DNA from: an uncultured Flavobacteriaceae bacterium
GTDB lineage: Bacteria; Bacteroidota; Bacteroidia; Flavobacteriales; Flavobacteriaceae
Assembly: GCA_963832255.1 (NCBI GenBank)
Contig: CAWHTM010000008.1
Location: 9,300-73,299, forward strand
Length of the DNA stretch: 64,000 nt
Direction of reading: 5' to 3'
In this document: positions 2,824 through 53,700 of the stretch, piece after piece
How the letters are laid out: the number at the start of each line of letters is the position of its first letter
Position numbering within the stretch: position 1 is the first letter of the stretch
Position numbers and translations under genes: made by a program
Notes under the pieces: generated by a model
What the model saw: only the letters and a program-made list of their open reading frames with translations
Told to the model about the DNA's origin: nothing
Databases searched by the model: none

Positions 2824-3660
2824 TTATGCCATAGCATAGACTTCATCAAACAGCTTTTTATCTAACCGCTCTTGTTGGCCAAAGCTTTTCTTTAAGACAT
2901 TATGAAGTACCGAGTTGAAGGCATTGTAACCCAACCATAGATTTGGTTCTTCATTGAGCAACAAGGCTTCATAGTTTAAAATTTCTATGACCTCACGAGA
3001 CTTTTTTGAAGGGTCGCTGTTCTTGTCGCTACACTCGTATCTGAACAATTTCGTTCTGTCGAGAATTGCCTTCACAAATTCTTGTGTATCGATGATTTTA
3101 AATTCTTTCATCTTGTCGAATTTCTTGGTAATGGTATAGAATTCATTATCCAAAAATTTATCGAATAGATTATTCAATCTCGGCATAATCAAGTGCGTAT
3201 TGTTCTTACTATGTTTGATGGAAAACTCGATTTCTGCCTGAGAAACGTGTAGTCCGTTTGAACATACTTCTCTATAAAACCCGAAGTGTCCAGAAGTTTT
3301 TTCACTTCCGTCATACGAGTTTTTGAACCGAAGCATCGGTAATATCAAGTCCTTATCGTTCTTCACGGTAAACTGGCTTTTGTCGTCGATAATAAAGTCA
3401 GTTATGAACGACCTATCATTTTTGTTGATGGTGCGTTTGTGGAAGTTCAGTTGTGCGTCGGTCAGCATTTCTTCAGCTTTCTTGAAGAACAGTTGATTCG
3501 GAATGTGGCCATAGCTGTTCGAGACCACATTTACGATTTTGCCATTCGAGATTATGGCATTTTCAAGCCCTCTTCGGGATTCCATCTGTGTTAGACTTTT
3601 TAAGGATTTCATTTCTGATGGAACAAAGATTTCATCCTGTTGTAAATTTTGTAAATACAT
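2824..3660 (-). CDS. DUF932 domain-containing protein
   Basis: Motifs NVVSNSYGHIPN, NSYDGS and REVCSNG. Likely start is MYLQNL at 3660; the ORF track extends it to 3771, overlapping the 53-aa ORF. Confidence 0.82.
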   Translation of the reverse strand: MYLQNLQQDEIFVPSEMKSLKSLTQMESRRGLENAIISNGKIVNVVSNSYGHIPNQLFFKKAEEMLTDAQLNFHKRTINKNDRSFITDFIIDDKSQFTVKNDKDLILPMLRFKNSYDGSEKTSGHFGFYREVCSNGLHVSQAEIEFSIKHSKNNTHLIMPRLNNLFDKFLDNEFYTITKKFDKMKEFKIIDTQEFVKAILDRTKLFRYECSDKNSDPSKKSREVIEILNYEALLLNEEPNLWLGYNAFNSVLHNVLKKSFGQQERLDKKLFDEVYAMA

Positions 3661-3676: not shown

Positions 3677-3838
3677 TTAAACATTTTCTGATAATACTCG
3701 GCAATAGTTGGGATGCTTATCCCTGTAATAAGCCAAGTGACTTTCGCCACTATCAATGTCATAATTTTCACTACTCGACTGATAATGCATTTCAGCTTCC
3801 TGTAGCGAAATTTTAGGTTTTTTGGATACTCGTTTCAT
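3677..3838 (-). CDS. 53-aa hypothetical protein (MKRVSKKPKISLQEAEMHYQSSSENYDIDSGESHLAYYRDKHPNYCRVLSENV)
   Basis: Manual translation ATG 3838 to TAA 3677; sits at nearly the same distance from hairpin repeat copy 1 as the parB ATG does from copy 2. Confidence 0.6.
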   Translation of the reverse strand: MKRVSKKPKISLQEAEMHYQSSSENYDIDSGESHLAYYRDKHPNYCRVLSENV

Positions 3839-3847
3839 AATGATATA

Positions 3848-4001
3848 TTTTGATTAAACAATATTTGAGCAGTACCCAAACGGAAGCTAAAATCTCAGCT
3901 CAAAAGGAAACGGAATAAATAAGCGTAGGATGTCGCGTGGGCTTTATGCCGTAGTCTTTTGATGGGTGTATTTTACGAGTTTACCTTTGCGCTAACTATT
4001 G
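3848..4001. repeat. Hairpin repeat copy 1 (candidate ssDNA promoter)
   Basis: Near-identical to 5898-6050 (offset 2050 nt); long imperfect inverted repeat; TTTG-N20-TACCTTTG on the + strand at 3958-3989. Confidence 0.85.
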
Positions 4002-4046
4002 ATTGATAACCCCCTTTTTCTAAGCATCACTTTTATGAATCATCAT

Positions 4047-4086
4047 AAAAAAGAAGAAGGGCCAGCACGAATGCCAACCCTTCTTC
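4047..4086 (-). terminator. Intrinsic terminator downstream of parB
   Basis: Minus strand reads GAAGAAGGGTTGGCA-TTCG-TGCTGGCCCTTCTTC followed by a T-run. Confidence 0.75.
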
Positions 4087-4098
4087 AAACAACAAAAG

Positions 4099-5886
4099 CT
4101 AATCGTTGAATTCCTGAATTTTCTTTTCAAGAACCGTGATGCGCTCTTTCAAACGTGCTTCACGCTTGTCTCTCTTTTCGGCATATTCTTTTTCAATGCC
4201 GGCAATCTTGGATTTGTAATACCCTTGCATTGCATTGTAGAATGAAATGTTCGTCAGATTGTTGACGTGATTGTTTTCGCCAAAATGCACTTGCTTCGTG
4301 AGCATATACCGTATCAATTTGTGGAAGATTTCCTTTTTGAACTTCTTTTTGAAATTCTCGACCATTTCAACTTTGGTCATTTTTGAAGTGTCGCCCAAGA
4401 ACTTTGAAAAATACTTTTGTTGGCTCATATAGTCCACATTGTTCTCAAATAGCGATATCGAGAATGCGACCATTTCGTCGGTCGAAAGTGTCTTCTTCGT
4501 ATCGATGTACTTGGTCTCACGAATCATTTCTGCAACTTCTTCAAACTGCTTGTTGTTCTCTATTTGCTTCTTACGGATTTCCCTTTCGTTGATTTTTACG
4601 ATTTGTTCTACGGGTGTACAATCTGCCATTTTTCTGTTGGCCAATGGTGCCGAATATTCCGTAGAATCGTTCTTTGATTTTTCAACAATCTTTACAAAGA
4701 TTTCCTTGTGTTGGAATGAATCTGGATGGAACACGATGCCGTTTTTAAATCCATCTTCTTTTGCTGAATTGAATTTTTCCAAGGCTGCTTTATAACTCTG
4801 CAATGCCTCATCCAATTCTGTCTTTAATTCATCTTCAGAATAATCGTAATGCTGAAACTCTTTCTGAATAGCTTCGATTGTTGGCTCAATCGGATTCTCT
4901 ATAATTTCAACATCGTCCAATAGATAGACTTTCAATCCGTTTTTTTCCAATTGTGATATAATGAGCTGATTGTTCTCGTCATCTGCCCAATACTGTCGTA
5001 TTTCAGGGATTAAAAGGATATTCTCTTTCTTGGATTTTTCAATCAGGTTTAAGAACGATTTACTTTTCTTCGTTTCAAAACAGGCTGCTTTTGTACAGAC
5101 CATTTTACCTTCGCCGAACAAATTGCCTTGATTTGCAGCATTGAAAGGACATTCAATACAAGACCCAGCTTTTGGGACCAATTTTTTGTCGGCTACATCA
5201 AAAGATGCTTTTTCCAAATCGAAGGTCTGGTCTTTAATCATTCTGTTTAACTGATGCGCATTGAAATCCTCGCCCATTGTTTCCAACATCATTTGCTGTT
5301 CCTCTGGTTCAAATAGCGCTACACCAACACCCAATGATATGGTCATTTCGCCATTGCGTACAAATTGCTTGAAACCGTCAATCAATCCAGCCAGTTTAAG
5401 TCGTTGTCTGATGAAGTTATCTGTCCTACCCAATCGCTTTGCAATCTCTGTCGCCGAATACTTCTCGCTTAGGTAAGCAATAGCATCGGCTTCTTCGGTC
5501 GGTTCAACATTCTGTCTTTGCAGGTTTTCGATGATTTGCACTTCAAGCACATCATTGTTCTCATAAGTTCTAACTATACAGGGTACGGTTTTCTTTCCTG
5601 CCAGCTTGCTTGCACGATATCGGCGTTCGCCCATCACGATGACGTAATGGCCATTTAGTTGTCTTACCGTGATTGGTTGCAACACACCGTGCTTTTCGAT
5701 ACTCTCAGAAAGCTGCTTTAACGCATCCTCGTTAAAGGTCTTTCTCGGCTGTTCAAGGTCAGGTTTGATTTTACCCAATGGTAAGTTCTGAATTTGAAGT
5801 GCTTTGGATTTTTTTCCGTTTACTTCTTTCTTGGCAGCTACTTTTGTTCTGCTGCGCTTCTTTGTGGTACTCGCTTTTGTTGTCAT
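4099..5886 (-). CDS. ParB/RepB/Spo0J family protein with long C-terminal extension (mobile-element type)
   Basis: QPRKTF, GVLQPITVR, GERRYRA and IIENLQR motifs followed by an HTH; ATG at 5886 (ORF track starts at TTG 5895). Confidence 0.9.
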   Translation of the reverse strand: MTTKASTTKKRSRTKVAAKKEVNGKKSKALQIQNLPLGKIKPDLEQPRKTFNEDALKQLSESIEKHGVLQPITVRQLNGHYVIVMGERRYRASKLAGKKTVPCIVRTYENNDVLEVQIIENLQRQNVEPTEEADAIAYLSEKYSATEIAKRLGRTDNFIRQRLKLAGLIDGFKQFVRNGEMTISLGVGVALFEPEEQQMMLETMGEDFNAHQLNRMIKDQTFDLEKASFDVADKKLVPKAGSCIECPFNAANQGNLFGEGKMVCTKAACFETKKSKSFLNLIEKSKKENILLIPEIRQYWADDENNQLIISQLEKNGLKVYLLDDVEIIENPIEPTIEAIQKEFQHYDYSEDELKTELDEALQSYKAALEKFNSAKEDGFKNGIVFHPDSFQHKEIFVKIVEKSKNDSTEYSAPLANRKMADCTPVEQIVKINEREIRKKQIENNKQFEEVAEMIRETKYIDTKKTLSTDEMVAFSISLFENNVDYMSQQKYFSKFLGDTSKMTKVEMVENFKKKFKKEIFHKLIRYMLTKQVHFGENNHVNNLTNISFYNAMQGYYKSKIAGIEKEYAEKRDKREARLKERITVLEKKIQEFND

Positions 5887-5897
5887 AATACTCAAAT

Positions 5898-6050
5898 TTT
5901 TGATTAAACAATATTTGAGCAGAAACCAAACGGAAGATAAAATCTTGGCTCAAAAGGAAACGGAATAAATACGCATAGGAAGATGCGTTGGCTTTATGCC
6001 GTAGTCTTTTGATGGAAGTATTTTACGAGTTTACCTTGCGTGTATATTGT
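5898..6050. repeat. Hairpin repeat copy 2 (candidate ssDNA promoter)
   Basis: Nested pairings ACAATAT/ATATTGT, TAAAAT/ATTTTA, TCAAAAG/CTTTTGA, ACGG/CCGT, ATAAA/TTTAT and ACGCAT/ATGCGT, all centred near 5980. Confidence 0.85.
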
Positions 6051-6187
6051 ATGATAATAAACCCCTCTAACGAAGAACAGAGGTTGAGATAACCTAAAAT
6101 TTATTATTCCTCAATACAGAAAATAGTCTTTGGCATCAAATGAAAGGATATAATATTAAAGTCAATTCGGTTCTGAAAAAAGACAAA

Positions 6188-6250: not shown

Positions 6251-6278
6251 AAAAGCCGAAGATTTCTCTTCGGCTTTT
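6251..6278 (-). terminator. Terminator hairpin downstream of tRNA-Leu
   Basis: AAAAGCCGAAGA-TTTC-TCTTCGGCTTTT. Confidence 0.8.
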
Positions 6279-6279
6279 G

Positions 6280-6361
6280 TGCGGATGACAGGAATCGAAC
6301 CTGCACACCTCGCGGCATCAGATCCTAAGTCTGACGTGTCTACCAGTTCCACCACATCCGC
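6280..6361 (-). tRNA. tRNA-Leu(TAG), intact, apparently element-encoded
   Basis: Reverse complement GCGGATGTGGTGGAACTGGTAGACACGTCAGACTTAGGATCTGATGCCGCGAGGTGTGCAGGTTCGATTCCTGTCATCCGCA: 7-bp acceptor stem, anticodon TAG, long variable arm, GGTTCGATTCC T-arm. Confidence 0.95.
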
Positions 6362-6395
6362 ATTTTAAATATTTTAACACTTTTTCTTAGGTTAA

Positions 6396-6435
6396 ATCCT
6401 AAGTCTGGCGTGTCTACCAATTCCACCACGCCCGC
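6396..6435 (-). pseudogene. 5' half of a second (host) tRNA-Leu(TAG), broken just after the anticodon loop; att junction
   Basis: Reverse complement GCGGGCGTGGTGGAATTGGTAGACACGCCAGACTTAGGAT then unrelated AT-rich sequence; 4 differences from the intact copy over 40 nt. Confidence 0.88.
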
Positions 6436-6477
6436 ATTTCAATAAACGTTACGTCGTAATTACTTTGTAACGGGGTG

Positions 6478-10329: not shown

Positions 10330-12087
10330 ATGAGTACTATTTTCCGTTTTTGGAGAGCGTTAAGAAGGCGTAATGTTCATAAGGGGGTTATCTCTTACGT
10401 AGTTTTTTCTTGGGTGCTACTTCAGGTAATCTCAGTTCTTGGTTCATTGGTCATATTACCTATCTGGCTGGGTAAAGCCGTTCTTATAACTTTGTTAGTT
10501 TTGTTTCCATTTTGGGTAGCTTTTTCTTGGCTATACGATGTAACTTCAGAAGGCATAAGGCTTACATCCCGTCGAGACAATCCTTCACCAGAGAGAAATG
10601 AGCATATCAACAAGCGACTTAATTCTTTTATTCTTATTTTTCTCATACTGGCTATACTTCTTCTTTTTGTAGATCGGTTCAGGCTTACTTCACAAAATGA
10701 AGGCAACGAGTTTGCTCTAAATACAGAAATGGAAAATAGTATTGCCGTGCTACCCTTCAATGATATTTCTTTACTACAAGATCAAAAATACTTTGCAGAT
10801 GGTCTTTCCGAAGAATTGATACAGACCCTATCAAAAATAATTGGAATGAGGGTAACTTCTCGAACCTCTGCGTTTTCTTTTGGAGGGAAAACTACCGATA
10901 TTCCTACTATAGCCAAAATGCTTAATGTAAACTATATTTTAGAAGGAAGTGTGCGCACCTTTGATAGTATGGTTCGGGTAAATGTGCAACTCATAGATGC
11001 AAAAAGGGATGTCTCTACTTGGTCTGAAACTTGGGATAAGCCCCTAAAGAATATTTTTCAAATCCAAAATGAGATAAGTACAAATGTGGCAGAACGTCTT
11101 GCCTTGCATATCACAGATAGTCCTCCAGATCAAATACGTAAAGCAAATCCTGAGGCATACCGACTCTATCTAGAGGGAGTATACGTAATGCGGAGTACTT
11201 TTGACATAGAAGGAGACCAGAAAGCTGAGAAACTTTTTAAACAATCGCTCGCAATTGATTCAACCTATGCGCCCGCTTGGGAACATCTCGCACACACCAT
11301 AAACTTTCAAACTGATCACGGACTATATCCGGTAGAAGTGGCCTACCCACGTATCAAAGAGGCCGCCTTAAATACAATAAAATACGATAGTCTCTATGCT
11401 CCTGCATATGCGCTATTAGGCACGATCGCAATTTCTTATGAAAAGGACTATCAAAAAGCGCAAGACTATGTAACTAAAGGTCTTAAAATATCACCTAATG
11501 ACATTGAGGTACTTAATAGAGCGGCAGAGGTCGCCCTCATACTTAATGAGCCTGAAAAGGCTGTTATGTATAATGAAAAAATTGCCCAGTTAAGCCCTCT
11601 TGAGGAATTCTCATTTTATGCACTAGGAATGACCTATTACTACGCTGGAAAATATCCAGAAGCAGAAAAGACCTTGCACAAAGCGCTTGAATTTACACCA
11701 GATGCAGACATCACTTATCAATTACTAACCGCTTCATTATTAATGCAAAATCGTCCTGAAGAAGCTTTAAACGCGGCAAAACAGGAAAAAAGCGAACCTC
11801 TTCGTTATCAATCTCTCGCTATTTCATATCACGCTTTAGGTGATAAAGAGAGGGCCAGTGAGAACCTCAATAAATTAATTTCTAAGTTTGAAAAAGACGC
11901 GAGCTATGATATAGCTGCCGTTTATGCACAAATGGGAGATATAGAAAAGGCGTATGTATTTTTGGAAAAAGCCATAAGTTATAATGATTTTGGTTTGTCA
12001 ACACTTAATGTTGAGCCTTACTTTGACCCGATCGTTCTTGATCCTCGATGGCCAATACTGATGAAAAGGTTAGGTCTTACCTACTAA
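10330..12087 (+). CDS. Membrane protein with TolB-like N-terminal domain and TPR repeats
   Basis: Three N-terminal TM segments, SIAVLPF...YFADGLSEELI...SRTSAF...YILEGSVR motif, then TPRs. Confidence 0.8.
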   Translation: MSTIFRFWRALRRRNVHKGVISYVVFSWVLLQVISVLGSLVILPIWLGKAVLITLLVLFPFWVAFSWLYDVTSEGIRLTSRRDNPSPERNEHINKRLNSFILIFLILAILLLFVDRFRLTSQNEGNEFALNTEMENSIAVLPFNDISLLQDQKYFADGLSEELIQTLSKIIGMRVTSRTSAFSFGGKTTDIPTIAKMLNVNYILEGSVRTFDSMVRVNVQLIDAKRDVSTWSETWDKPLKNIFQIQNEISTNVAERLALHITDSPPDQIRKANPEAYRLYLEGVYVMRSTFDIEGDQKAEKLFKQSLAIDSTYAPAWEHLAHTINFQTDHGLYPVEVAYPRIKEAALNTIKYDSLYAPAYALLGTIAISYEKDYQKAQDYVTKGLKISPNDIEVLNRAAEVALILNEPEKAVMYNEKIAQLSPLEEFSFYALGMTYYYAGKYPEAEKTLHKALEFTPDADITYQLLTASLLMQNRPEEALNAAKQEKSEPLRYQSLAISYHALGDKERASENLNKLISKFEKDASYDIAAVYAQMGDIEKAYVFLEKAISYNDFGLSTLNVEPYFDPIVLDPRWPILMKRLGLTY

Positions 12088-12532: not shown

Positions 12533-14587
12533 TGATAACCCTCCTCTATCTTATAAAAAGCACCCTGTGTCTAGCTGTTCTACTTGGCTTTTATAAGCTT
12601 GCTTTAGAAAACAAGGCGATGCACCAGTTCAAACGTTATTACTTGCTCGCGAGTTTAGTATTTGCTTTTACCATCCCCCTTATCACTTTTACGTATACCG
12701 TAGAGGCCGAGCCTATAACAACGGCGATCCCGCAGGATTACTCCTATACCACTTCTCCTGTAGAACCTACACAAGTAAGTGTAAGCCCAGAAAAATCACT
12801 ACTACCTCAACTTCTTTGGATTATTTATACGCTAGGAGTGATCATTTTTGGTGTGCGTTTTATTCTAAATTTATTTCGCTTAAAGCGAAAAATTGAAACA
12901 TCAGAGCAATACAGAGAAAAAGACATTACCCTAGCCTTGCTTTCTCAAAGCGTCATACCTCACTCCTTCTTAAAATGGATTTTTCTTAATAAAACGGAAT
13001 ACCTTTCAAATAATATCGCTCCAGAAGTCCTTGCACACGAGGCAACGCACGTACGACAAAAACACTCTTGGGATATTATTTTTATAGAACTTCTTCAAGT
13101 TTTTTTCTGGTTCAATCCTCTTATCTGGGTTTCTAAAATAGCCGTTAAACTTAATCACGAATTCCTTGCAGACCAAGGAGCGATAGCGCATAACAGTCAT
13201 ATTGCAATATATCAAAAAATACTCTTGAGCTATGCGAGCAGTACTCATCACACCGCTCTCGAGAGTCCGTTCAATTATTCATTAACCAAAAAACGAATCA
13301 TTATGTTATCACAATCATTTAGTACAAAGAAAGTAATTACAAGAGCCTTATTGCTCGTACCGGTCTTAGCACTCTGCGCCTTAGTTTTTAATCAGGCTAT
13401 TGTTGCGCAGGAGAAAGAACCATTGACCGCTCGGAATTTAGATATTAAAATTATCGGAGAGAATATTTATGAAATCAACGGAGTAAGGACTGAAGGAACA
13501 GGTGTGTATGAAGTGGCATCTTTATTCAATAAAGACCTCACATTTAAAGAGCGTGAAGATTATATTAATGTTCATATCATCCACCCAGATTCTGTGAGTA
13601 ATGACGAGATTGACTTTCTAAAAAAAGCACTTAAGCCATATGGCTATTATAGATTTAAGCTTTGGGAAAACACCATAATTTCAGATAATCAAGAACCTGA
13701 TCAGTTAGTTATAACATCTACAACTCCATCAAACAGAGACCTAGAAAATTGGCAAGACACTTCCTTTTATGGAGTCCGTATAGATGGCAGAACAATAGAC
13801 AATAAAGATCTTTTAAAATATGACGCTTCAGATTTTGGATTTTATGTTCAGACCTGGCTTCCAAAAAAAGCTGTATACGATGCCCAACATCACGTACAAG
13901 TTGATCTTATGACTGTTGCTCATTACGATAAAATAAAGCCGGATCTCAATACAACCTTGGAAAAAATCAAAAGCCAATATTCAAGCACTTCTATAAACCA
14001 ACATTCATACGGACAAAAGTTTGTTTCTGGCGCTGCCCAAAATGACAAAAAAGCACTCGTCATAGAAATCAAAAATGATCAAATCACCATTAATGGCAAA
14101 CAATCGTCCCTGTCAAAATTAAAAGATGACATTAACCAGATTACTGCAAATTGGACAGCGTCAGATTATAAAAATTTTGCACAATCTTTTATATTTAAAG
14201 GAAACACCACATCGTTCCTTCGCCTCGCCGAAGAGGAATTTAAGAAAACAAAAATAGCTCAGCTTAATACGCATTTAGAACTAGTTCCTCCACCACCGCC
14301 GCCATCGCCAAGCACTCCTCCTGGACCTATAGCCCCACCACCTCCTCCACCGCCGGTTCAGCCCTGTGAAGCATTTAGAAAAAATGAATGATATGGGGGG
14401 ATTATTTTATTTCGAAAAAAAGAGGATTACCTATAAGCAAGTACTAGAGCTTATAGATCTGAACAAAAATCTTAACATAGAAACGCCATATCCATACACT
14501 AATCCCCCAAAAACATACGTATCTAAAGTCTCTGCTCCAGTAAATGATACTGATCCTGAAAAGACCAAGACAAAAACATTCAGATAA
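12532..14587 (+). CDS. M56 (BlaR1-like) metallopeptidase sensor, with an apparent frameshift near 14355
   Basis: HEATH zinc motif, FWFNP, HEFLAD. ORF 12532-14391 stops after the Pro tract; ORF 14366-14587 continues with the usual Flavobacterial C-terminal segment. Confidence 0.85.
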
Positions 14588-26955: not shown

Positions 26956-28089
26956 CTATTTAAGGTTGAGTAAAAATAAATCTGAGGCGATCCCATCAGA
27001 GAGAAACTTTCCTTTTTTTGTGACATATATTCTATCTCCATCCTGAAAAAGTAAATGTTCTTCTAGATGTTTTACTGCCTGTTTGAGGAAGTATTCTTTA
27101 AATTTTAAGCCAAAAAGCGATGCTATCTTATCTAAAGAGACGCCATACTGTGTGCGCAAGCGTGTCATCACAAACTCATTATATTGGTCTGTTACCGTAA
27201 GCTCTTCTATCTCTCGTGGTAGCTCTCCTACAGAGATGGCTTTTATATAGTTGGGGTTGTTATTTATATTCCACGAGCGGCGTTTACCGTCATAACTATG
27301 TGCGCTAGGGCCTATGCCTATATACGTTTCTCCTTGCCAGTAAGCGGTGTTATTGCGGGAATGAAATCCTTTCAAGGCAAAATTAGAAAACTCGTAGTTC
27401 TCATATCCCGCCTCTTCCATACGTCTTACGAGAATCTCGTGATGTTGCTGTGCAACTTCATCTTCTACGGGAGGAATTATTCCTTTTTTTATAAAATTCT
27501 CTAAAGCAGTTTTTGGCTCCACGGTAAGTGCATAAGCAGATATGTGAGGCACCCCTAATGCTAAAGCCTTGTCAATATTTTTCTCCCATCGCTCATTGCT
27601 CATTCCAGGGATGCCGTAAATGAGATCCAGCGAACTATTAGGAAATCGCTTTCGCGAAAATGTTAAACATTCCACCGCCTCCGTTGCATTGTGGGCTCGG
27701 TTCATCATCTTGAGGTCTTCTTCAAAAAATGACTGCACCCCTATGCTCAATCGGTTGATTTTAGAAGCAGAAAGAGCCTCTATTTTTTCTTTAGTAAGAT
27801 CATCTGGGTTTGCTTCGAGCGTAATCTCAGGATGCTTTTCAATCGTGTACAATGAATAGCATTTTTCAATCAAAGAATCAACCTCAGCAGCCTCTAAAAC
27901 AGAAGGCGTACCTCCACCAAAATATATATTTGAAACCTCCTCGCCCTCAAACTCTGTAGCACGCATTTCTAACTCTGTCGCTAAGGCCTCAAGCATTTCC
28001 TCCTTTTTACCCATAGTGGTAGAAAAGTGAAAATCACAGTAATGACAAGCCTGCTTGCAGAAAGGAATATGAATATAAATGCTCGCCAT
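26956..28089 (-). CDS. hemW: Radical SAM heme chaperone HemW
   Basis: YIHIPFCKQACHYCDF, YFGGGTPS, YEFSNFA. Confidence 0.9.
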   Translation of the reverse strand: MASIYIHIPFCKQACHYCDFHFSTTMGKKEEMLEALATELEMRATEFEGEEVSNIYFGGGTPSVLEAAEVDSLIEKCYSLYTIEKHPEITLEANPDDLTKEKIEALSASKINRLSIGVQSFFEEDLKMMNRAHNATEAVECLTFSRKRFPNSSLDLIYGIPGMSNERWEKNIDKALALGVPHISAYALTVEPKTALENFIKKGIIPPVEDEVAQQHHEILVRRMEEAGYENYEFSNFALKGFHSRNNTAYWQGETYIGIGPSAHSYDGKRRSWNINNNPNYIKAISVGELPREIEELTVTDQYNEFVMTRLRTQYGVSLDKIASLFGLKFKEYFLKQAVKHLEEHLLFQDGDRIYVTKKGKFLSDGIASDLFLLNLK

Positions 28090-37382: not shown

Positions 37383-37481
37383 ATTTTGAAATAATTCCCC
37401 TAAACTAAGGAAACCTTTACAATGGATTATTGAAAAGGTTTAAAATTTTCGCGAAAGCGTAAAAACAACATATTGAGAAGG

Positions 37482-41632: not shown

Positions 41633-41710
41633 CGTATTTCTCAAAAGTATATCCCTAAACATAAATCTCAAAACCTGTAGATGGCGCGAGTCTTCAAAAA
41701 TGTAATAATT

Positions 41711-41757
41711 ACGCTTTCGCGAAAACGTTAAAGGTTTTAAAATTTTCGCGAAAGCGT
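41711..41757. repeat. Inverted pair of the dispersed TTTCGCGAAA motif between convergent genes
   Basis: ACGCTTTCGCGAAAA ... TTTTCGCGAAAGCGT. Confidence 0.8.
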
Positions 41758-41767
41758 ACTTGTCAAA

Positions 41768-43717
41768 TTAATTGGTTTTGATAACTATAAATTCAGAACG
41801 TCGGTTGAGCTGATGTTCTTCTTCAGTACACTTTACACCATTAGAACATTTATTTACGAGTTGTGTCTCTCCGTAACCTTTTCCGCTGATTCTTGATTTA
41901 CTGATACCTTGCTCGACTATGTAGGCAACAGTAGATTTTGCACGCTTATCTGAAAGACTTAGATTATAGCTGTCCTTACCTCTACTGTCCGTATGTGATC
42001 GCGTATCGATTATCATATCCGGGTATTGTTTCATTACAGAAATAACTTTTTCTAGCTCGAGAGCTGCATCAGGACGGATATTGTATCTGTCAAAATCAAA
42101 GTAAATAGGATTGAGGTCTAAGAGTATTGTTAAGTCATCTCCCACTTCAATAGGTCTATTTTCCAATGTGAGATTGAGATCATTTATAAGGGTGGTAGAT
42201 TCTGCTGCTGTGCGTACCCCTTTTTCATCGGTAGAATAATCTTCTTTACTTCCTCTTACAAAATATTGTTTTTCACAATCAGAATTAAAACTATAGGTAC
42301 CCGTAGTATCTGTTACTAGCTGTTCTATGATTGTATTAGTATCATCTAGTAGAAAAACACTAGCCTCTGCAATAGGGTCTCCAGAACTGTCATCTAGAAC
42401 ACGACCTTTCAGTACGATATCGCAAGGAATTTCTTCCCTCATAAATCTGTAAATGTCATCACTCCCTAACCCTCTCTTTCTGTTTGAGGCAAAATATCCA
42501 ACATTAGTATCATCATTAACCGTAAACGTAAAATCATCATAAGAGCTATTGATAGGCTCTCCTAAGTTCTCAACACGTTCAGAATCATTAGGATCCTGTT
42601 TGGGTGTCGTCACGTACATATCGAGACCGCCTAATCCCGGATGACCGTCTGATGCAAAAAATAAATTTCCATTCTTGCTCATAAAAGGAAATGTCTCCCG
42701 ACCTTCTGTATTGACAGGCCTTCCTAAATTATAAGGCGTTCCTACAACTCCTGTACTGTCTATAGAGACATACCATATATCTGAAAGCCCTACAGTACCT
42801 GGCATATCTGACGCAAAAAATAATTTTGTATCATCGGCATTTAGGGTAGGGTGTGCCGTAGAGTATTCGTCACTATTAAAAGGCATTTCTACAGCCTCCG
42901 TCCAGTTCCCATTAACTTTCTGAGATTTGTAAATCTTGAGTTTATTGGTCCCAGACTTAGATTTTCTATAGTTTCCTTGGGTGTAATTATTTCTGGTAAA
43001 ATAGACGGTGTTTCCATCTTTAGAAAAGGTGGTAGTACTTTCGTGAAATTTTGAATTGAGCTTACGATCAAATTCCTGAGGTTGTGAAAAACTCCCAGAC
43101 TCATTTCCTATTTTGGAGCTATACAGATCTAAAAACGGTTGATTGTTCCACTTGTGAATTTTTTTGGTTGCCCCTCCAGTATCTCTCGAAGAAGCAAAGA
43201 TCAATGTTCCCTCATATTCCGTGGGTGCAAAATCAGAATAGCGCGAGTTAATACTTCTAATATCTTCTAAAACATAGCTGCTTTTCTTATACTCGATAAC
43301 CCTTAAATAATTAGGCGACTCTTCAAAAAGTTCTGCTCTAAGATCTCCACCATTAAGTTCATTGAACGTAGACATCATATCATCTGCCTTGTCATAATTC
43401 TTTAGCGCTCTTAATGTTTGGGAGAATCTAAAATAGTATTCTGGTCTTATTTCATCACCATAATTTACTACCAGTTTATCATACCATTGCTCTGCTTCAC
43501 CGTACATAGCGTTAAAGTAGTAGCTATCTGCGATTTTCTGAAAAAGATCTGCAGATCTGTATCCTTTTTCTGCAACATCTAGATAAATTTTTCTAGCGTC
43601 GACAAAAGCATACTGATTAAATTTTTTATCAGCTCTGTCAAGTTTGCCTTCTTGCGCTATAAGAGTTAAGGATGTCATCAAGAAAAATGACAACCCAAGA
43701 ATTAATTTTTTAATCAT
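41768..43717 (-). CDS. PorE-like OmpA family protein (TPR, PD40 propeller, carboxypeptidase-regulatory and OmpA domains)
   Basis: FASDMPG and FASDGHPGLGGLD PD40 motifs; IYFDFD, SHTDSRG, LS..RA and NRRSEF OmpA motifs. Confidence 0.9.
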   Translation of the reverse strand: MIKKLILGLSFFLMTSLTLIAQEGKLDRADKKFNQYAFVDARKIYLDVAEKGYRSADLFQKIADSYYFNAMYGEAEQWYDKLVVNYGDEIRPEYYFRFSQTLRALKNYDKADDMMSTFNELNGGDLRAELFEESPNYLRVIEYKKSSYVLEDIRSINSRYSDFAPTEYEGTLIFASSRDTGGATKKIHKWNNQPFLDLYSSKIGNESGSFSQPQEFDRKLNSKFHESTTTFSKDGNTVYFTRNNYTQGNYRKSKSGTNKLKIYKSQKVNGNWTEAVEMPFNSDEYSTAHPTLNADDTKLFFASDMPGTVGLSDIWYVSIDSTGVVGTPYNLGRPVNTEGRETFPFMSKNGNLFFASDGHPGLGGLDMYVTTPKQDPNDSERVENLGEPINSSYDDFTFTVNDDTNVGYFASNRKRGLGSDDIYRFMREEIPCDIVLKGRVLDDSSGDPIAEASVFLLDDTNTIIEQLVTDTTGTYSFNSDCEKQYFVRGSKEDYSTDEKGVRTAAESTTLINDLNLTLENRPIEVGDDLTILLDLNPIYFDFDRYNIRPDAALELEKVISVMKQYPDMIIDTRSHTDSRGKDSYNLSLSDKRAKSTVAYIVEQGISKSRISGKGYGETQLVNKCSNGVKCTEEEHQLNRRSEFIVIKTN

Positions 43718-44771: not shown

Positions 44772-47700
44772 TTATCTGTGAATATATAAGTAACCACTAT
44801 CGTTGAATTGAGTTCCCTCTGCATTTCTGTATTCAAGAACCCAGTAATAAGTTCCTACGGGTAAGAAGTCATCTTGGCTTATAGTAGACCTTCCTTCAGA
44901 AAGTCCCTTAAAGGTTTTTCCATTTATACCATAACCCTCTGCACTGTAAACTTCTACACCCCATCGGTTAAATATCCTCAACGTGTTATCAGGGAAGTTT
45001 TCAATCCCATCGATTCTGAATCGATCATTTATTGAATCTTCACCTATTGATATACCATTACTTATGACCAATTCATTGTCAAAAACAATCAACTCAGTAA
45101 CCGTTGGATCTTGAACATCTCCATCAACAGTTATATCTGTAGGATCTGTAGGATCATCAGAAATATCAATTACTTCGTCGCCACTGCTATTTGTTCCTGT
45201 AGCCAATGCGCTATTTGTAACGCTTCCGTTATCAATGTCAGCTTGAGTAATCGTATAGAAGGCTGTAAATTCTGCACTTTCTCCAGGTAAGAGCGTTATA
45301 GCGTCCCCTATAACATCTACTAGTGGATCTGTAACTATCACGTTAAAAATTGTAACGTTTCCTGTATTTGTAACTGTAAATGTATATCGAATACGATCTC
45401 CAGCATCTGTTACTCCATTCACATTAAAGTCTACATATTCACCTATCTTGATTAAATCAAGTCTCTCTACTTGAGTAATTATAGTTACCGTTGGATCTTC
45501 AAAATCTCCATCCCCGTCAGTATCAGTGTTTGTAGGATCATTTGGATCATCAGACACGTCTATCACATCATTTCCTGAAGGATCTTGACCGGTCGCCGTA
45601 GCTATATTGACCACTCCACCAGCATCCACGTCTTCTTGAGTTATACTGTATACTCCACTAAAGGTAGTTGAATCAGTTGCGCCAACAGCTAAGTCTATAG
45701 GACCACCATTTACAACCAGCAAGGGATCTGTAATGGTAATATTCGTTATTGCTACATTACCATTATTTGTGACTGTAAATACATAAGTTATAGTATCACC
45801 AGCACCTATTACCCCATCTCCGTTAGTATCAATAAGAGGCGATGCCACTTTGACTAAATCAAGATTCGGGCTGCTAGGTAACGCATATCCATTATTTTCT
45901 TCGAAGACAATTCCTCCTTCAGGAACAGTAACCGTTGTAGGATCAGTTCCCTCTGTTTGGATTGCACCCACAGGTAGGGTTGTCTCATCAATATCAACCG
46001 TTGCGTTCTGATTACCAGCTACCGTAGCCGAATAATCTCCATTTGCATCTGTCACTACCGTTTGAACTGTACCATCTGTATCGGTAATCACTACGGATAC
46101 ACCAGCAAGGTCAGGCTCACCAACATCCTGTGTTCCGTTGCCATTTAAGTCGTTATAAACGTGACCCTCAATCGTTCCAGCTTGATTAGGCTCTTGATAT
46201 CCATTATTCTCCTCAAAGACTGTGTTACCTACAACTACGTTCACCACAGTTGGGTCCGTACCCTCAGTTTGTACAGCCCCAACAGGTAGCGTAGTTTCAT
46301 CGATATCAACAATCGCATCACCAGCCACAATGGAAACACTATAATCTCCGTTAACGTTTGTCGTTACCGTCTGGACATTACCATTTGCATCTGTTATTAG
46401 TACCTCCACTCCAGCAAGGTCAGGCTCACCAGCATCTTGAGTTCCGTTTCCGTTCAGATCATTGTATATGTGACCTTCAATCGTTCCATTGCTCGGCGTG
46501 TTATATCCGTTGTTCTCTTCAATAACATTGTTTCCAGCTATCGCTGTCACCGTTGTGGGATCAGTTCCCTCTGTTTGGTTTGCTCCTATAGGAAGTGTTG
46601 CATCATCAACGTCAATACTAGTATCACCAGCGGGAACAGAAACGATATAGTTACCATTCATATCTGTAATCACTGTTTGAATAGTTCCGTTAACATCAGT
46701 AACAATTACTGATATACCCTGCAATCCAGGCTCACCAGCATCTTGTATTCCGTTACCATTAATATCATCGTACACGACACCCGTAATAGTACCGTTGCTC
46801 GGTGTATTAAATCCATTATTTTCCTCAAATGTTGTCTCCGAAACTAGTACCGTTACCGTAGTGGGATCTGTCCCTTCTGTCTGAACAGCTCCGATAGGAA
46901 GTGTAGCTTCGTCAATATCGACCACGGTATCTCCAGCTACAACAGTAGCCATGTAGTTACCATCCACATCTGTAACGACAGTCTGAATAGTTCCGCTAGC
47001 ATCTGTAATAACAACTGTCACCCCTTCTATTCCAGGCTCTCCCGCATCTTGTATTCCGTTACCATTCACATCATCATACACAACTCCAGCGATGGCTCCA
47101 TCAGTAGGGACATTATATCCATTGTTCTCCTCAAAGTTTATCCCACCTGCGATAACGGTTATCGTAGTAGGGTCTGTCCCTTCGGTTTGAACGCTTCCAG
47201 ATGGCAATGTTGTTTCATCGATATCTACTATGGTAGTTCCTGAAGGAACCTGAGCATTATAATCGCCATTTGAGTCAGTCACAACAGTTTGAGTATCACC
47301 ATTACTATCTGTGATCATTACCAACACTCCTGCAAGATCATTCTCACCAGCATCTTGAATACCATTACCATTTATATCCTCGTAAATATGACCTGTAATT
47401 TCAGCATCCATAGCTGGATCATCGTTATCGATAATAGTTCCAGTAGCCGTCTCTCCACCAATGGTTATGGTAAAGGTCTCATCCTGTTCATCGATCGCAT
47501 CCTCCAGTCCAGGGAAGGTAACCTCAAAATCAGTTACTCCAGCCGGTACCGTGATGGTCATCGTTACAGGATCATACGTCACTCCATTGGTGAACAATGG
47601 GGTACCATCGTAATCAGTACCTAGGGTAGCGGTTACATCGGTGATGTCAAATGCATAGGTCTCGTCCATCGCACTCTCACCGCTCATCGTTACTCCAAAA

Positions 47701-50700
47701 GTAAGAGCATCTCCCTCCTGCTCCGTAGCATCTGTGATATCGGCCACGACAACTTCATCATTGTCTGTGATCGTACCCGTGGCGGTCTGTGTGCCGATGG
47801 TGATCGTATAATCCTCATCTTGTTCATCCAACAGATCGTCCGTCGTCGGGGTGGTCACCGTAAAGCTCGTCACTCCAGCGGGTACAGTTACCGTCATCGT
47901 TACAGGGTCGTACGTCACACCATTACTAAAGGTCGGTGGGAAGGTATAATCCGTAGCCTGATCTGTCGTGTTATCTGTGATACTGAATGGGAAGGTCTCG
48001 TCCATTGCACTCGCAACATTCAATGTCACCGTGTGCACTAGGTCCGTACCCTCAAGTTCTGTTTCATCTGTGATATTCAGAATAATGACCCCCTCGTCAT
48101 CAATAATGGTTCCCGTGGCGGTCACACCATCGATGGTCACCGTAAAGGTCTCATTATCCTCGGCCAATAGATCATCAATACCAGGGAAGGTGACCGTAAA
48201 GTCTTCCACTCCCGCAGGTATCGTAATGGTCATCGTCACAGGATCGTACGTCACACCATCACTGAAGATAGGCGTACCGTCATAATCATCACCCTGTGTA
48301 GCGGTGATGTCCGTGATGTCAAAAGGATATACTTGGTCCATATCGCTCACACCGCTCATATCCACTGTGAAGACAAGATCGTCTCCTTCGTTTGCAGTGA
48401 CATCAGCAATAGCTACAACGGTTACTTCATCGTTATCGATAATAGTTCCAGTAGCCGTCTCTCCACCAATGGTTATGGTAAAGGTCTCATCCTGTTCATC
48501 GATCGCATCCTCCAGTCCAGGGAAGGTAACCTCAAAATCAGTTACTCCAGCCGGTACCGTGATGGTCATCGTTACAGGATCATACGTCACTCCATTGGTA
48601 AACACTGGGGTACCATCGTAATCAGTACCTAGGGTAGCGGTTACATCGGTGATGTCAAATGCATAGGTCTCGTCCATCGCACTCTCACCGCTCATCGTTA
48701 CGGCAAAGATCAGATCGTCGCCCTCCTGCTCCGTGGCATCTGTGATATCGGCCACGACAACTTCGTCGTTATCCGTGATCGTACCCGTGGCAGTCTGCGT
48801 GCCAATGGAGATCGTGTAACTCTCATCTTCTTCATCCAACAGATCATCCGTCGTAGGGGTGGTCACCGTAAAGCTCGTCACTCCGGCAGGTACCGTTACC
48901 GTCATCATTACTTGGTCATAGGCCACACCATCACTGAAGGTCGGTGGAAAGGTATAATCCGCAGCCTGATCTGTCGTGTTATCTGTGATACTGAATGGGA
49001 AGGTCTCGTCCATTGCACTCGCAACATTCAATGTCACCGTGTGCACTAGGTCCGTACCCTCAAGCTCTGTCTCATCTGTGATGTTCAGAATAATGACCCC
49101 CTCGTCATCAATAATGGTTCCCGTGGCAGTTACACCATCGATGGTCACCGTAAAGGTCTCATTATCCTCGGCCAATAGATCATCAACACCAGGGAAAGTG
49201 ACCGTAAAGTCTTCCACTCCCGCAGGTATCGTAATTGTCATCGTTACAGGGTCGTACGTCACGCCATCACTGAAGATAGGCGTACCGTCATAATCATCAC
49301 CCTGTGTAGCGGTGATGTCCGTGATGTCAAAAGGATATACTTGGTCCATATCGCTCACACCGCTCATATCCACTGTGAAGACAAGATCGTCTCCTTCGTT
49401 TGCAGTGACATCGGCAATAGCTACAACGGTTACTTCATCGTTATCGATAATAGTTCCAGTAGCCGTCTCTCCACCAATGGTTATGGTAAAGGTCTCATCC
49501 TGTTCATCGATCGCATCCTCCAGTCCGGGGAAGGTAACCTCAAAATCAGTTACTCCAGCCGGTACCGTGATGGTCATCGCTACAGGATCATACGTCACTC
49601 CATTGGTGAACAATGGGGTACCATCGTAATCAGTACCTAAAGTAGCCGTCAAGTCGGTAATGTCAAATGCATAGGTCTCGTCCATCGCACTCTCACCGCT
49701 CATCGTTACGGCAAAGATCAGATCATCGCCCTCCTGCTCCGTGGCATCCGTGATATCGGCCACGACAACTTCGTCGTTATCCGTGATCGTACCCGTGGCA
49801 GTCTGCGTGCCAATGGAGATCGTGTAACTCTCATCTTCTTCATCCAACAGATCATCCGTCGTAGGGGTGGTCACCGTAAAGCTCGTCACTCCGGCAGGTA
49901 CCGTTACCGTCATCATTACTTGGTCATAGGCCACACCATCACTGAAGGTCGGTGGGAAGGTATAATCCGCAGCCTGATCTGTCGTGTTATCTGTGATACT
50001 GAATGGGAAGGTCTCGTCCATTGCACTCGCAACATTCAATGTCACCGTGTGCACTAGGTCCGTACCCTCAAGTTCTGTTTCATCTGTGATATTCAGAATA
50101 ATGACCCCCTCGTCATCAATAATGGTTCCCGTGGCGGTCACACCATCGATGGTCACCGTAAAGGTCTCATTATCCTCGGCCAATAGATCATCAACACCAG
50201 GGAAGGTGACCGTAAAGTCTTCCACTCCCGCAGGTATCGTAATTGTCATCGTTACAGGGTCGTACGTCACGCCATCACTGAAGATAGGCGTACCGTCATA
50301 ATCATCACCCTGTGTAGCGGTGATGTCCGTGATGTCAAAAGGATATACTTGGTCCATATCGCTCACACCGCTCATATCCACTGTGAAGACAAGATCGTCT
50401 CCTTCGTTTGCAGTGACATCGGCAATAGCTACAACGGTTACTTCATCGTTATCGATAATAGTTCCAGTAGCCGTCTCTCCACCAATGGTTATGGTAAAGG
50501 TCTCATCCTGTTCATCGATCGCATCCTCCAGTCCAGGGAAGGTAACCTCAAAATCGGTCACCCCGGCTGGTACCGTGATGGTCATCGCTACAGGATCATA
50601 CGTCACTCCATTGGTAAACACTGGGGTACCATCGTAATCAGTACCTAGGGTAGCGGTTACATCGGTGATGTCAAATGCATAGGTCTCGTCCATCGCACTC

Positions 50701-53700
50701 TCTCCGCTCATCGTTACGGCAAAGATCAGATCATCGCCCTCCTGCTCCGTGGCATCCGTGATATCGGCCACGACAACTTCGTCGTTATCCGTGATCGTAC
50801 CCGTGGCAGTCTGCGTGCCGATGGAGATCGTGTAATCTCTCATCTTCTTCATCCAACAGATCGTCCGTCGTCGGGGTGGTCACCGTAAAGCTCGTCACTC
50901 CGGCAGGTACCGTTACCGTCATCGTTACTTCGTCATAGGTCACACCATCACTAAAGGTCGGTGGGAAGGTGTAATCCGCAGCCTGATCTGTCGTGTTATC
51001 TGTGATACTGAATGGATATTCTTTCGCGAAAGCGGCCTCGCCACTCAACACTACAGTATGAACGAGATCAGTTCCTTCAAGCTCCGTCGCATCGGTTATA
51101 TCTGCAATAACAATATCATCGTCATTTACTATAGTTCCTGTTGCTGAAACGCCACCTATAGATATAGTATATGTCTCATCACTCTCCTCTATGGCATCCT
51201 CAACTCCTGGGAACGTAACCTCAAAAGAAGTTATCCCGGATGGAATTGTTATGGTTCCATCCCCATTATTTATAACTCCATTTGAAAAGATTGGAGTAGC
51301 ATTATAATCGTCTCCAGCTGTTGCTGTGATATCTGTAACATCAAAATTAAAGATCTGAGCTTCAATACTTGCCTCACTCAACGTAACCAAATGAGTTAAG
51401 TCATCACCTTCATTTTCTGTAGCATCCGTAATTGAATCTATTGCTACATCATCATCTAATATTGTTCCTGTAGCATCAATACCACCTATGGATACTGTAA
51501 AAGTTTCAGTTGGCTCATCTTCAGTGTCTTCTATTCCTAGGAATGTCACTTCAAAGTCAGTAACTCCAGCTGGAATTGTTATTGTTCCTGAAACCTGATC
51601 AAAACTTACACCATTTGAAAACACAGGTGTTCCATCATAATCTGCACCTGCTGTAGTTGATATATCGGTTACATCAAATGGATACATTTCATCCATAGCG
51701 CTCTCACCACTCATCGTAACCACAAAAGTTAGATCATCACCCTCTTGCTCCGTAGCATCCGAAATGGTTGCAACTGTAACTTCGTCATTATCGAATATTG
51801 TTCCTGTTGCTGAAATTCCTCCTACCGAAATGTCGTAAATTTCATTTTCTTCATCTAAAGAGTCATCTACTGTGGACGTAATTACTGTAAAACTAGTTAC
51901 CCCAGCTGGTACGGTGATCATCATTGTGACTGGATCATAGGTCACCCCATCAGTAAAACTAGGAGGGAATGTGTAGTCTGTTGCCTGATCTGTTGTAACA
52001 TCTGTAATTGAGAATATAAACATTTCATCAGTTGCACTCGCAGCGCTAAGAATAACCAAATGTTCCAGCGTCATTCCTTCAGGAGAAATAGCATCTTCAA
52101 CCGCAATGACTACGGTGCCTTCATTATCTATAATAGTACCGGTAGCTATTTCTGCTCCTACGGTAATATCGTAAACTTCATTTCCTTCTGAAATTGCGTC
52201 ATCGATCGTTTCCGTTGTAATCGTAAATATTTCTATACCTGCAGGTACCGTAATGGTCATCGTGACAGGATCATACGTAACACCGCCACTAAATGTGGGT
52301 GGGAAGTTATAATCTGCAGCCCCTTCTGTGGTATCATCAATTATACTGAAAGGATATATTTCATCCGTTGCACTCGCACCACTCATTGTGACGGTATGTA
52401 CAAGATCTAATCCCTCTTCCTCGGCGGCATTTGTAATATTTTGAACCGTTACTTCATCATTATCTATAATAGTTCCAGTTGCTGAAATTCCGTCAATTGA
52501 AACTTCGTAGGTTTCATCATTCTCATCTATAAGGTCATCTATACCCGAGAAGGTTACCTCAAAAACACTTACACCAGCAGGAATTGTAATCATTCCTGAA
52601 ATCTGGTCAAAAGTAACTCCATTGGTGAAGGTAGGATTCCCATCGTAATCAAATCCTGAGGATGCAGTAACATCGGTTACGTTGAATGAATACATTTCAT
52701 CCGAATCACTAGGACCGCTCATCGTTACCGTGTGTACCAGATCGGTCCCCTCCAGCTCAGAGGCATCCGTGATCGTTGCGACCGTCACTATATCATCATT
52801 GGTGATCGTTCCGGTGGCCACCGTGCCGTCCAGGTTGATCGTAAAGGTCTCATCATCCTCCTGGATCGCATCCTCGATCCCCGGGAAGGTCACCGTGAAG
52901 TCCTCCACACCGGCAGGTATCGTGATGGTCATCGTTACCGGATCGTACGTCACGCCATTGGTGAAGACCGGCGTACCGTCATAATCATCGCCCTGTGTGG
53001 CAGTGATGTCCGTGATATCAAAAGCGTACACCTGGTCCATATCACTGGTGCCGCTCATATCTACCGTAAAGACGAGATCATCGCCCTCGGCAGCGGTCAC
53101 ATCGCCGATCGAAACAACCGTTACGTCATCGTCGTTCGTGATGGTCCCCGTGGCTGATTCAGTTCCTATAGTTAAGGTAAAGGTCTCATCATCCTCCTGG
53201 ATCGCATCTTCCGTACTCGGGAAGGTAACGTCAAAAGCCGTTACGCCCGCAGGTACCGTGATGTTGCCACTTACGGGATCATAGGTCACCCCGTTCGTAA
53301 AGACCGGTGTGCCATCGTAATCCGTACCCAAGGTAGCAGTGATGTCCGTAAGGTCCAATGGATATTCTTCATCCATTGCGCTCTCACCGCTCATCGTTAC
53401 ATTGAACACCAGGTCGTCCCCTTCCTCAGAAGTGGCATCCGTGATGTCCTGTACCGTTACTTCATCATTATCCTCTATCGTTCCAGTGGCGGTCTCCGTG
53501 CCGATACTGATCGTGTACTCTTCGTTATCTTCATCCAACAGATCATCTGTCGTCGGGGTGGTCACCGTAAAGCCCGTTACCCCGGCAGGTACCGTGATCG
53601 TACCATCGCCATTGTCCATCACCCCATTACTGAAGGTCGGCGGGAAGGTATAATCGGTAGCCTGGTCCGTCGTGTTATCCGTGAGGGTGAACGGATAGGT

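Follow-up and report, generated by a model that had tools for sequence, protein, structure and literature searches.

A 64,000-nucleotide (nt) stretch of contig CAWHTM010000008.1 from an uncultured Flavobacteriaceae bacterium (GenBank assembly GCA_963832255.1; the whole stretch is referred to here as the window) harbors two near-identical hairpin repeats, at positions 3848 to 4001 and 5898 to 6050, which probably represent single-stranded DNA (ssDNA) promoters that are read by the host sigma factor and serve the leading genes (parB, DUF932, ssb, and radC) carried by integrative conjugative elements (ICEs). The preliminary description of this DNA, made from its letters alone, had regarded the repeats as a Bacteroidota ICE counterpart of the Frpo and ssi promoters of enterobacterial plasmids. 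The computable checks agreed with this view, which is, therefore, considered to be supported, with promoter activity, the transferred strand, and priming as its predicted components.

Two hairpin repeats in the window

The features of the two repeats are as follows:

3848 to 4001, + strand: hairpin copy 1, predicted ssDNA promoter for a 53-aa open reading frame (ORF) and DUF932 (sequence, alignment, and DNA folds)
3901 to 3919, + strand: left arm of the conserved apical core of copy 1, which pairs with 3943 to 3961 and contains conserved A.G and A.A mismatches
3943 to 3961, + strand: right arm of the core of copy 1, ending in the -33-like TTTG at 3958 to 3961
3982 to 3989, + strand: -7 box TACCTTTG of copy 1, on the 3′ arm, predicted to be non-template
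3839 to 3866, - strand: predicted A/T-rich 5′ leader of copy 1, ~28 nt, its start near 3866 placed from the box geometry and the consensus position in PMC7366714
5898 to 6050, + strand: hairpin copy 2, which would serve parB as an ssDNA promoter (sequence, alignment, and DNA folds)
5951 to 5969 with 5993 to 6011, + strand: core of copy 2, with TTTG at 6008 to 6011
6032 to 6039, + strand: -7 box variant TACCTTGC of copy 2, read from the sequence

Alignment of 3848 to 3987 with 5898 to 6037 revealed 90.7% identity over 140 nt, bearing out the near identity described previously. The repeats had been said to end approximately 10 nt before a minus-strand ATG; the measured distance is 9 to 11 nt, to the ATGs at 3838 (53-aa ORF) and 5886 (parB), and the Pfam assignments of the genes concerned are DUF932 and ParB_N/HTH_ParB. 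The arrangement of TTTG, 20 intervening nucleotides, and box on the + strand can be read directly from the letters in both copies (3958 to 3961 and then TACCTTTG at 3982 to 3989; 6008 to 6011 and then TACCTTGC at 6032 to 6039).

When folded as DNA, the + strand of copy 1 reaches -17.9 kcal/mol (z, -1.9; 8 of 200 shuffles were equally good) and that of copy 2 -19.7 kcal/mol (z, -3.3; 0 of 200 shuffles), while the corresponding minus-strand values are -14.1 (z, -1.0) and -17.3 kcal/mol (z, -3.4). The -33 TTTG is located in a firm apical stem, with a pairing probability of ~0.98 in both copies, which agrees with its predicted paired state in the folded + strand. At gathering and E-value thresholds, the window and 17 related loci matched only tRNA in Rfam, and the hairpin thus corresponds to no existing family in that database.

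Promoter boxes and their spacing

To place these repeats in a wider family, an exact gapped pattern was employed, which yielded 138 loci in 6 of 64 parts of GTDB (~1,300 estimated overall), the 137 distinct matches forming 37 clusters at 65% identity. Under a single fixed score with a strict threshold (at least 13 of 14), a -7 box is present on the + strand of the 3′ arm in 23 of the 37 clusters, as opposed to none on the mirror arm, none on the minus strand of the 3′ arm, and two on the + strand of the left arm. Shuffled sequences gave a mean count of 2.7 and a maximum of 8 (300 shuffles), and random host windows contained a box in 6.3% of cases. The score is informative in the host, where it identified a box upstream of 73 of 186 divergent genes versus 22 in the control. 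Among 26 window-like copies, box positions A2, T5, and T6 are invariant (26/26) and positions 3 and 4 vary; A2 and T6 match the pair of bases that are flipped out when housekeeping sigma factors bind -10 elements. Positions 2 to 6 of the 23 boxes have a mean unpaired probability of 0.64, compared to 0.22 and 0.24 for the upstream and downstream flanks, respectively.

The spacing between the two elements was assessed with boxes picked independently of the structure; 27 clusters possess a box scoring at least 12, of which the 17 with confident closing pairs were kept and 10 were dropped. Measured along the 3′ arm, the distance from the paired TTTG to the box ranges from 19 to 40 nt (standard deviation, 6.7; n = 17), whereas along the template arm it is confined to 17 to 25 nt (mean, 20.7; standard deviation, 1.8; n = 17). 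The spacing is, therefore, constant on the arm opposite the boxes, which makes sense if the promoter is read in its folded form. This template-arm spacing, as derived from modeled folds, is regarded as the strongest result of the analysis.

Conservation of the stem and apical core

The + strand was predicted to be more stable than the minus strand in 35 of the 37 clusters (median z, -3.8; 20 shuffles each). In a swap control from which the core had been removed, the best partner of a left arm proved to be its own right arm in 26 of 37 clusters, with mean energies of -20.8 kcal/mol for the own arm and -10.4 kcal/mol for other arms. Of 32 named pairs followed through the 26 window-like copies, 12 have changed on both sides, and 93.5% of cells are paired versus 41 to 47% when the arms are slid, a value reached by 0 of 500 shuffles; this test overstates the case, because the 26 copies are kin and one of them supplied the structure. 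Chance as the origin of the pattern was ruled out by the shuffle, swap, and slide controls.

The core is nearly invariant across orders, and paired changes within it are seen in matches that were found by the covariance model (described below) and not by the pattern. The near-invariant apical duplex (approximately -37 to -55) is likely to be a protein contact, for example, a UP-like element or factor site. At one locus (L049:3782-3941), an unrelated sequence that still pairs has taken the place of the apical core, and the outer stem and box are preserved.

Distribution of the hairpin family

The repeat was detected by blastn in 61 of 400 genomes of the family Flavobacteriaceae. Judged by record title, the pattern loci belong to Flavobacteriales, Chitinophagales, Sphingobacteriales, Cytophagales, and marine Bacteroidales, almost all being Bacteroidota; five metagenome-assembled genomes labeled outside this phylum (L059, L119, L132, L135, and L157) are presumed to reflect misbinning. 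The covariance-model scan proposed in the preliminary description was carried out with model R1, which recovered the same four copies in the genome of origin and hits in 6 of 150 genomes of the phylum, a lower bound, as the model captured only the 16-pair core and the filters were strict. No match was found in a phage collection, and a plasmid search returned one Aquimarina record with partial matches and no enterobacterial plasmid. Gene families located downstream of the hairpins include SSB, DUF932, ParB, RadC, and PRTRC proteins.

A group of loci without a nearby mobile marker (L066, L085, L092, L095, L097, L111, L112, L119, L121, L124, and L126), mostly Chitinophagaceae-like by title, displays a layout of its own, in which the hairpin accompanies DUF6943 or DUF6876 and an unnamed, convergent 249-aa gene, in many cases together with a small ORF. 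The ESM Atlas places the product of this gene in unnamed Bacteroidota clusters with a weak DUF6266 lead, and no relaxase was found on the contig in the five genomes of this group that were examined.

Strand, relaxase polarity, and the second copy pair

Related sequences provide modest support for the + strand as the one that folds. GNA triloops are present in 26 of 116 apices on the + strand and 2 on the minus strand (shuffles: mean, 10.4; maximum, 21), tandem GA accompanies such apices in 6 versus 0 cases, and a stricter wobble count of G.T versus A.C, adopted only later, yielded 15 to 6 (p = 0.08), the numbers for A.G and C.T being 15 and 2. GNA mini-hairpins are reported to be more stable in DNA than in RNA and are found at ssDNA priming sites (PMC13037366).

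The copies had been expected to travel with ICE relaxases in a fixed orientation, and this proved to be the case. A DUF5712/MobB relaxase is encoded in 48 of 57 genomes with the repeat (the 61 genomes above minus four with weak partial matches) versus 8 of 60 without it. Within 60 kb, a relaxase gene is present at 47 of 66 loci, each locus being counted once, situated in all 47 on the downstream side and the opposite strand, at a median distance of 6.5 kb; the remaining 19 loci, several of which are near contig ends, have none within 60 kb on the contig. For the pattern loci, a relaxase in view occupies the expected side and strand in 20 of 20 cases, and PF03432 relaxases on the same contig within ~70 kb are on the opposite strand in 11 of 11 cases and on the expected side in 9 of 11.

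The whole genome holds exactly four hairpin copies, the second pair being located on contig C13 in a complete-looking ICE. The gene order of this ICE is hairpin, parB, hairpin, DUF932, cargo, ssb, DUF6876, an intergenic gap, a BfmA-like gene, the DUF5712/MobB relaxase, coupling protein, tra genes, RteC, and integrase; an att repeat was looked for and not found. BfmA is the accessory protein of cLV25. In 26 of 28 DUF5712-type ICEs, the hairpin strand carries a short inverted repeat and, behind it, ACCCTCTTGCT, upstream of the BfmA-like gene, so that a candidate oriT (origin of transfer)-like motif shares its strand with the hairpin, as the preliminary description would have it. In C13, this motif is located at ~70960-71040 (L003 ~12960-13040) and is a candidate nick site for DUF5712 relaxases. 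The oriT of MOBP systems similarly consists of an inverted repeat followed by a core, ATCCTG (PMC3772185) in place of the CTCTTG found here, and cLV25 has been classed as MobP (PMC5704250).

Based on the relaxase position and the MOBP-like oriT layout, the hairpin strand is predicted to be the transferred strand. Following a cut at the oriT-like motif, the transferred 5′ end would pass ssb, cargo, DUF932, hairpin, parB, and hairpin, with the relaxase entering last, and the hairpin strand would represent the gene template, as it does in F.

The C13 ICE also harbors another long hairpin of ~340 nt upstream of ssb, at 69230-69770 (L003 ~11230-11770), which folds to -82 kcal/mol on the predicted transferred strand and -64 kcal/mol on the other. 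It is not a member of the present family and showed no clear -7 box, and it may represent a second class. Related segments of ~200 nt, after DUF932 (59240-59690) and before ssb (68830-69270), flank the cargo.

Proposed mechanism

It is proposed that the strand predicted to be transferred would fold into the hairpin after entering the recipient, whereupon the 3′ arm would present a host-type -7 box, situated in a mismatch bubble, to the housekeeping RNA polymerase of the recipient. The polymerase would subsequently transcribe along the 5′ arm and on into the genes of the leading region; once the second strand is synthesized, the hairpin would be unfolded and the promoter thereby switched off. 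From the box geometry, transcription would start near 3866 and 5916, and a leader of 28 to 30 nt is predicted for window-type copies, in which 64 to 67 nt separate the core from the first ATG of five or more different genes. Use of the fold by RNA polymerase is predicted, as is transient leading-gene expression in recipients; a possible second role of the transcript would be that of a primer for second-strand synthesis.

If correct, this would make an unrelated sequence family with a -7/-33 consensus a convergent, host-tuned design, and would provide an easy means of recognizing the transferred strand and the establishment genes in Bacteroidota ICEs, as well as a short module for expressing genes transiently after mating. 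The variants found in nature, with one-arm loops and the box in a bubble, would constitute a ready set for studying how sigma reads a fold-back template. A broader proposal, entertained here as a tentative and rather doubtful one, is that the hairpins form a phylum-wide portable module with constant template-arm spacing, in which a dedicated protein of the host or the element reads the near-invariant, mismatched apical duplex (~ -37 to -55), thus defining a factor-dependent class of ssDNA promoter that has also been recruited by non-conjugative cassettes. The protein would be an activator or a factor keeping SSB off, the other arm would loop out up to 20 extra bases, and the cassettes would be those with DUF6943/DUF6876 beside a DUF6266-like gene, which would likewise pass through a single-stranded stage.

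Comparison with known systems

Described ssDNA promoters include Frpo1/Frpo2 (ssp1a/b) and ssp2 of F and ssi1-3 and the ssDNA promoters of classes 2 and 3 in IncI1 plasmids (PMC9849209, PMC12672017, PMC11541004, PMC13478746), and in F the transferred strand is the template for the leading-region genes (PMC9849209, PMC11541004). In common with Frpo/ssi, the present family features a long imperfect template-strand hairpin upstream of leading genes pointing toward oriT, which is repeated before separate operons and is followed by SSB, ParB-like, and DUF932 genes. The boxes, however, are of the -7/-33 rather than the -10/-35 type, and the fold is A/T-rich and ~150 to 190 nt long, whereas that of F is GC-rich and measures ~300 nt. 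Unlike Frpo/ssi, the hairpins reside in chromosomal ICEs with DUF5712 or PF03432 relaxases, have a near-invariant apical duplex, and are promoters by prediction.

No homology with Frpo/ssi was found when both copies were compared by blastn to the 52-68 kb region of F, matches being 10 to 15 nt only with E values of at least 3.4, and none of the 10 supplements of PMC11541004 that could be searched contains the core 13-mer. In F, the hairpins that precede ssb and the DUF932 operon do fold on the template strand, and scans failed to place -35/-10 boxes in them. The leading region of F carries ssb, a ParB-like gene, and DUF932. The window ParB-like protein resembles YfjB/HerB of F, which is zygotically induced (10.64898/2026.07.07.736705), in its N-terminal part only (23% over 201 aa), while the two DUF932 proteins belong to the same Pfam family (25% over 159 aa). 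With regard to functional class, the family displays a covarying stem-loop on one strand (weaker in the window copies), boxes aimed at the downstream gene, and leading-gene families near oriT, except at 23 of 70 loci.

Orientation-specific folded ssDNA that host enzymes read within an ICE is a predicted feature shared with RNA-polymerase-dependent single-strand origins, namely sso1 of ICEBs1 and the sso of rolling-circle plasmids (PMC4595007), from which the hairpins differ in having one long stem and a promoter box at a fixed distance from the start codon, often with one copy per operon. The pLS20-family EGeRS1/EGeRS2 similarly represent a repeated regulatory module before establishment genes; EGeRS1, however, is a 400- to 600-bp fold without a promoter for which the transferred strand is non-template, and EGeRS2 is a repressed duplex promoter (PMC8708921). 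The present hairpins, in which the predicted transferred strand is the template and the box lies within the fold, do not have these features of EGeRS1 and EGeRS2.

The Bacteroidota primary-sigma promoter consists of TTTG at -33 and TAnnTTTG at -7 separated by ~20 nt (PMC7366714), and the hairpin shares its box sequence, variable nn, ~20-nt spacing, and, by prediction, a leader of ~28 to 30 nt, the median leader in B. thetaiotaomicron being 32 (PMC7366714). Unlike those promoters, the box here is on the non-coding strand and would reach the gene only through the fold. Induction of leading genes is reported to fall in a distant host, from which the authors suggested a tuning of the promoters to the sigma factors of the host (PMC12672017). 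Since surveys relied on likeness to Frpo or on -35/-10 boxes, they would miss Bacteroidota. No description of a Bacteroidota ssDNA promoter was found in a literature search that left most subscription papers and some supplements outside its reach. The main texts of PMC11541004, PMC12672017, PMC13478746, and 10.64898/2026.01.09.698686 do not contain 'Bacteroid', and the accessible text of the Minerva preprint (10.64898/2026.09.22.753630) mentions neither Frpo nor conjugation. In the accessible literature, published ssDNA promoters are, thus, those of enterobacterial plasmids; the Bacteroidota -7/-33 version appears to be new and is predicted to work like Frpo/ssi, to which it is unrelated by sequence.

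Contrary evidence and alternative explanations

Several observations weigh against the hairpins being ssDNA promoters. No strict -7 box is present in 14 of the 37 clusters, and one subfamily carries TTTC/TTCC at -33 and a box ending in TTTC. The TTTG put forward as the -33 element is indeed present in the window, but it belongs to the larger near-invariant apical duplex and is replaced in that subfamily, and it is the weaker of the two boxes. Furthermore, as cited in PMC7366714, a -33 element was not identified in RNA-seq data of F. johnsoniae, so that a -7 box on its own might, in duplex DNA, drive rightward transcription as well. The outer stems of both window copies are weak, with alternative registers around the box; the box bases of copy 1 are 0.14 to 0.76 unpaired, and the best fold of copy 2 pairs the -7 box in an alternative register. 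The mismatch bubble proposed in the preliminary description is, therefore, supported across the predicted folds of the family, whereas it is not clean in the two window copies. As regards the strand, a neutral count of G.T versus A.C in the outer stems was null (152 to 145), the energy advantage of the + strand may come largely from the shared core, and in L056, the cluster nearest the window (57 members), the own arm pairs no better than others (z, 0.2). The polarity counts are not independent, because the 47 loci are kindred ICEs, and the putative nic position was placed by likeness only. Six RNA runs contained small shares of matching sequence, and the four that were aligned consisted of contigs of relatives, which weigh neither for nor against expression from the hairpins.

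A tie between the copies and mobile elements, as initially anticipated, is evident at the 47 of 70 pattern loci that have a mobile marker within 10 kb and breaks down at the other 23; among 10 marker-less genomes checked, 8 have no PF03432 relaxase on the hairpin contig, 4 of these having none at all, and 2 do have one on that contig. The window island itself is without a relaxase, coupling protein, or TraG, and as no second such gene was found in the 85%-complete assembly, the window element may be a transfer-less remnant or, alternatively, may be broken at a contig gap.

The same strand and fold demands would apply if the hairpin were mainly a single-strand origin, at which RNA polymerase, or primase at the core, makes the second-strand primer and expression is secondary. 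F, rolling-circle plasmids, and ICEBs1 all have RNA-polymerase-dependent origins of this kind (PMC4595007), approximately 15 of 37 clusters would begin a U-rich transcript with the first long ORF 95 to 150 nt from the core, and the GNA mini-hairpins of some apices (26/116 on the + strand) are a motif of ssDNA priming sites (PMC13037366). We consider this explanation unlikely in view of the 64 to 67 nt between the core and the first ATG of window-type copies, a distance kept in front of no fewer than five different genes, the minus-strand ORF whose start is no more than 200 nt away in 23 of the 30 clusters that have sufficient flanking sequence, and the occurrence of two copies at a distance of 2 kb, each heading its own transcription unit and separated by a terminator-like site. 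It is more improbable still that the box acts as a conventional promoter in duplex DNA, reading rightward and antisense to the gene upstream, with the hairpin acting as a protein-bound cruciform or silencing structure. Although TTTG-N20-TACCTTTG on the + strand is a full duplex consensus in the window and the -33 element may be dispensable (PMC7366714), such a promoter would not need pairing of the distant left arm, yet the arms covary; the spacing is fixed on the left arm only, a + strand ORF begins to the right in just 13 of 37 clusters, and parB and DUF932 would be left without a promoter. The two activities may nevertheless coexist.

Comparably improbable is an action of the element as RNA, either as an attenuator in the minus-strand mRNA leader or as a + strand small RNA, despite the fact that long covarying hairpins before genes are typical of cis-regulatory RNAs, that pLS20 EGeRS1 repeats precede establishment genes and were argued not to be ssDNA promoters (PMC8708921), that the neutral wobble test picked no strand, and that + strand boxes are found left of the hairpin in 9 of 37 clusters versus 13.9% of random windows. 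There is no Rfam match, and boxes on the minus (coding) strand are located upstream in 4 of 37 clusters versus 19.6% of random windows. Terminator-like sites upstream would block read-through, no + strand terminator follows either copy, and an RNA role would not account for a -7 box that is conserved, unpaired, and held at a fixed distance along the template arm. Finally, zygotic induction by loss of a repressor, with the core serving as an operator at a hidden duplex promoter as in p576/EGeRS2, is a known mechanism (PMC8708921) that would suit a core so nearly invariant across orders as to resemble a binding site. It is deemed the least probable explanation, as a coding-strand promoter was looked for and none was found, changes in the core are compensatory in pairs, and L049 retains the outer stem and box around a different paired core.

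Genes, terminators, and island around the window copies

The genes and signals neighboring the two copies are the following:

3677 to 3838, - strand: 53-aa ORF, kept at 52 to 57 aa behind related hairpins, without a Pfam or PADLOC match
2824 to 3660, - strand: DUF932 gene (Pfam), ATG at 3660, frame open from 3771
4099 to 5886, - strand: ParB-like gene, 595 aa (Pfam ParB_N and HTH_ParB)
4053 to 4086, - strand: intrinsic-terminator-like hairpin after parB (terminator scan)
6064 to 6083, - strand: weak terminator-like hairpin upstream of copy 2 (terminator scan)
6251 to 6278, - strand: stronger terminator-like hairpin after the tRNA (terminator scan)
6279 to 6361, - strand: tRNA-Leu(TAG), likely integration site (tRNA annotation and half copies)

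The coding strand before parB and before the 53-aa ORF/DUF932 contains no conventional -7 box, in contrast to the tRNA control, which has one. The terminator-like hairpin behind parB (4053 to 4086) would shield copy 1 from read-through. PADLOC gave no match for seven neighboring proteins; the conserved ORF of 52 to 57 aa right behind the hairpin (3677 to 3838, - strand) is a candidate early protein.

The window island ends at the tRNA-Leu gene (6279 to 6361), a 3′-half copy of which is located at C12 21602-21661, adjoining an integrase-like gene (C12 20152-21366) named from its sequence, with metal-resistance cargo between the tRNA-Leu and this integrase-like gene. The island seems to span C12 and C8, carrying copper and CzcA-type metal cargo. 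A 5′-half copy of the tRNA-Leu is present at 6390-6437 in the window, just upstream of the intact gene.

Elsewhere in the window, three adjacent overlapping long ORFs (2026, 1057, and 1854 aa; 44772-59519, - strand) are composed of 306- to 336-nt repeats and may represent a single giant surface protein that frameshifts have interrupted. Palindromic repeats sharing a TTTCGCGAAA core are scattered over the window, at 27647-27671, 37430-37474, and 41697-41769, and such palindromes also occur elsewhere in the genome and within the C13 relaxase gene.

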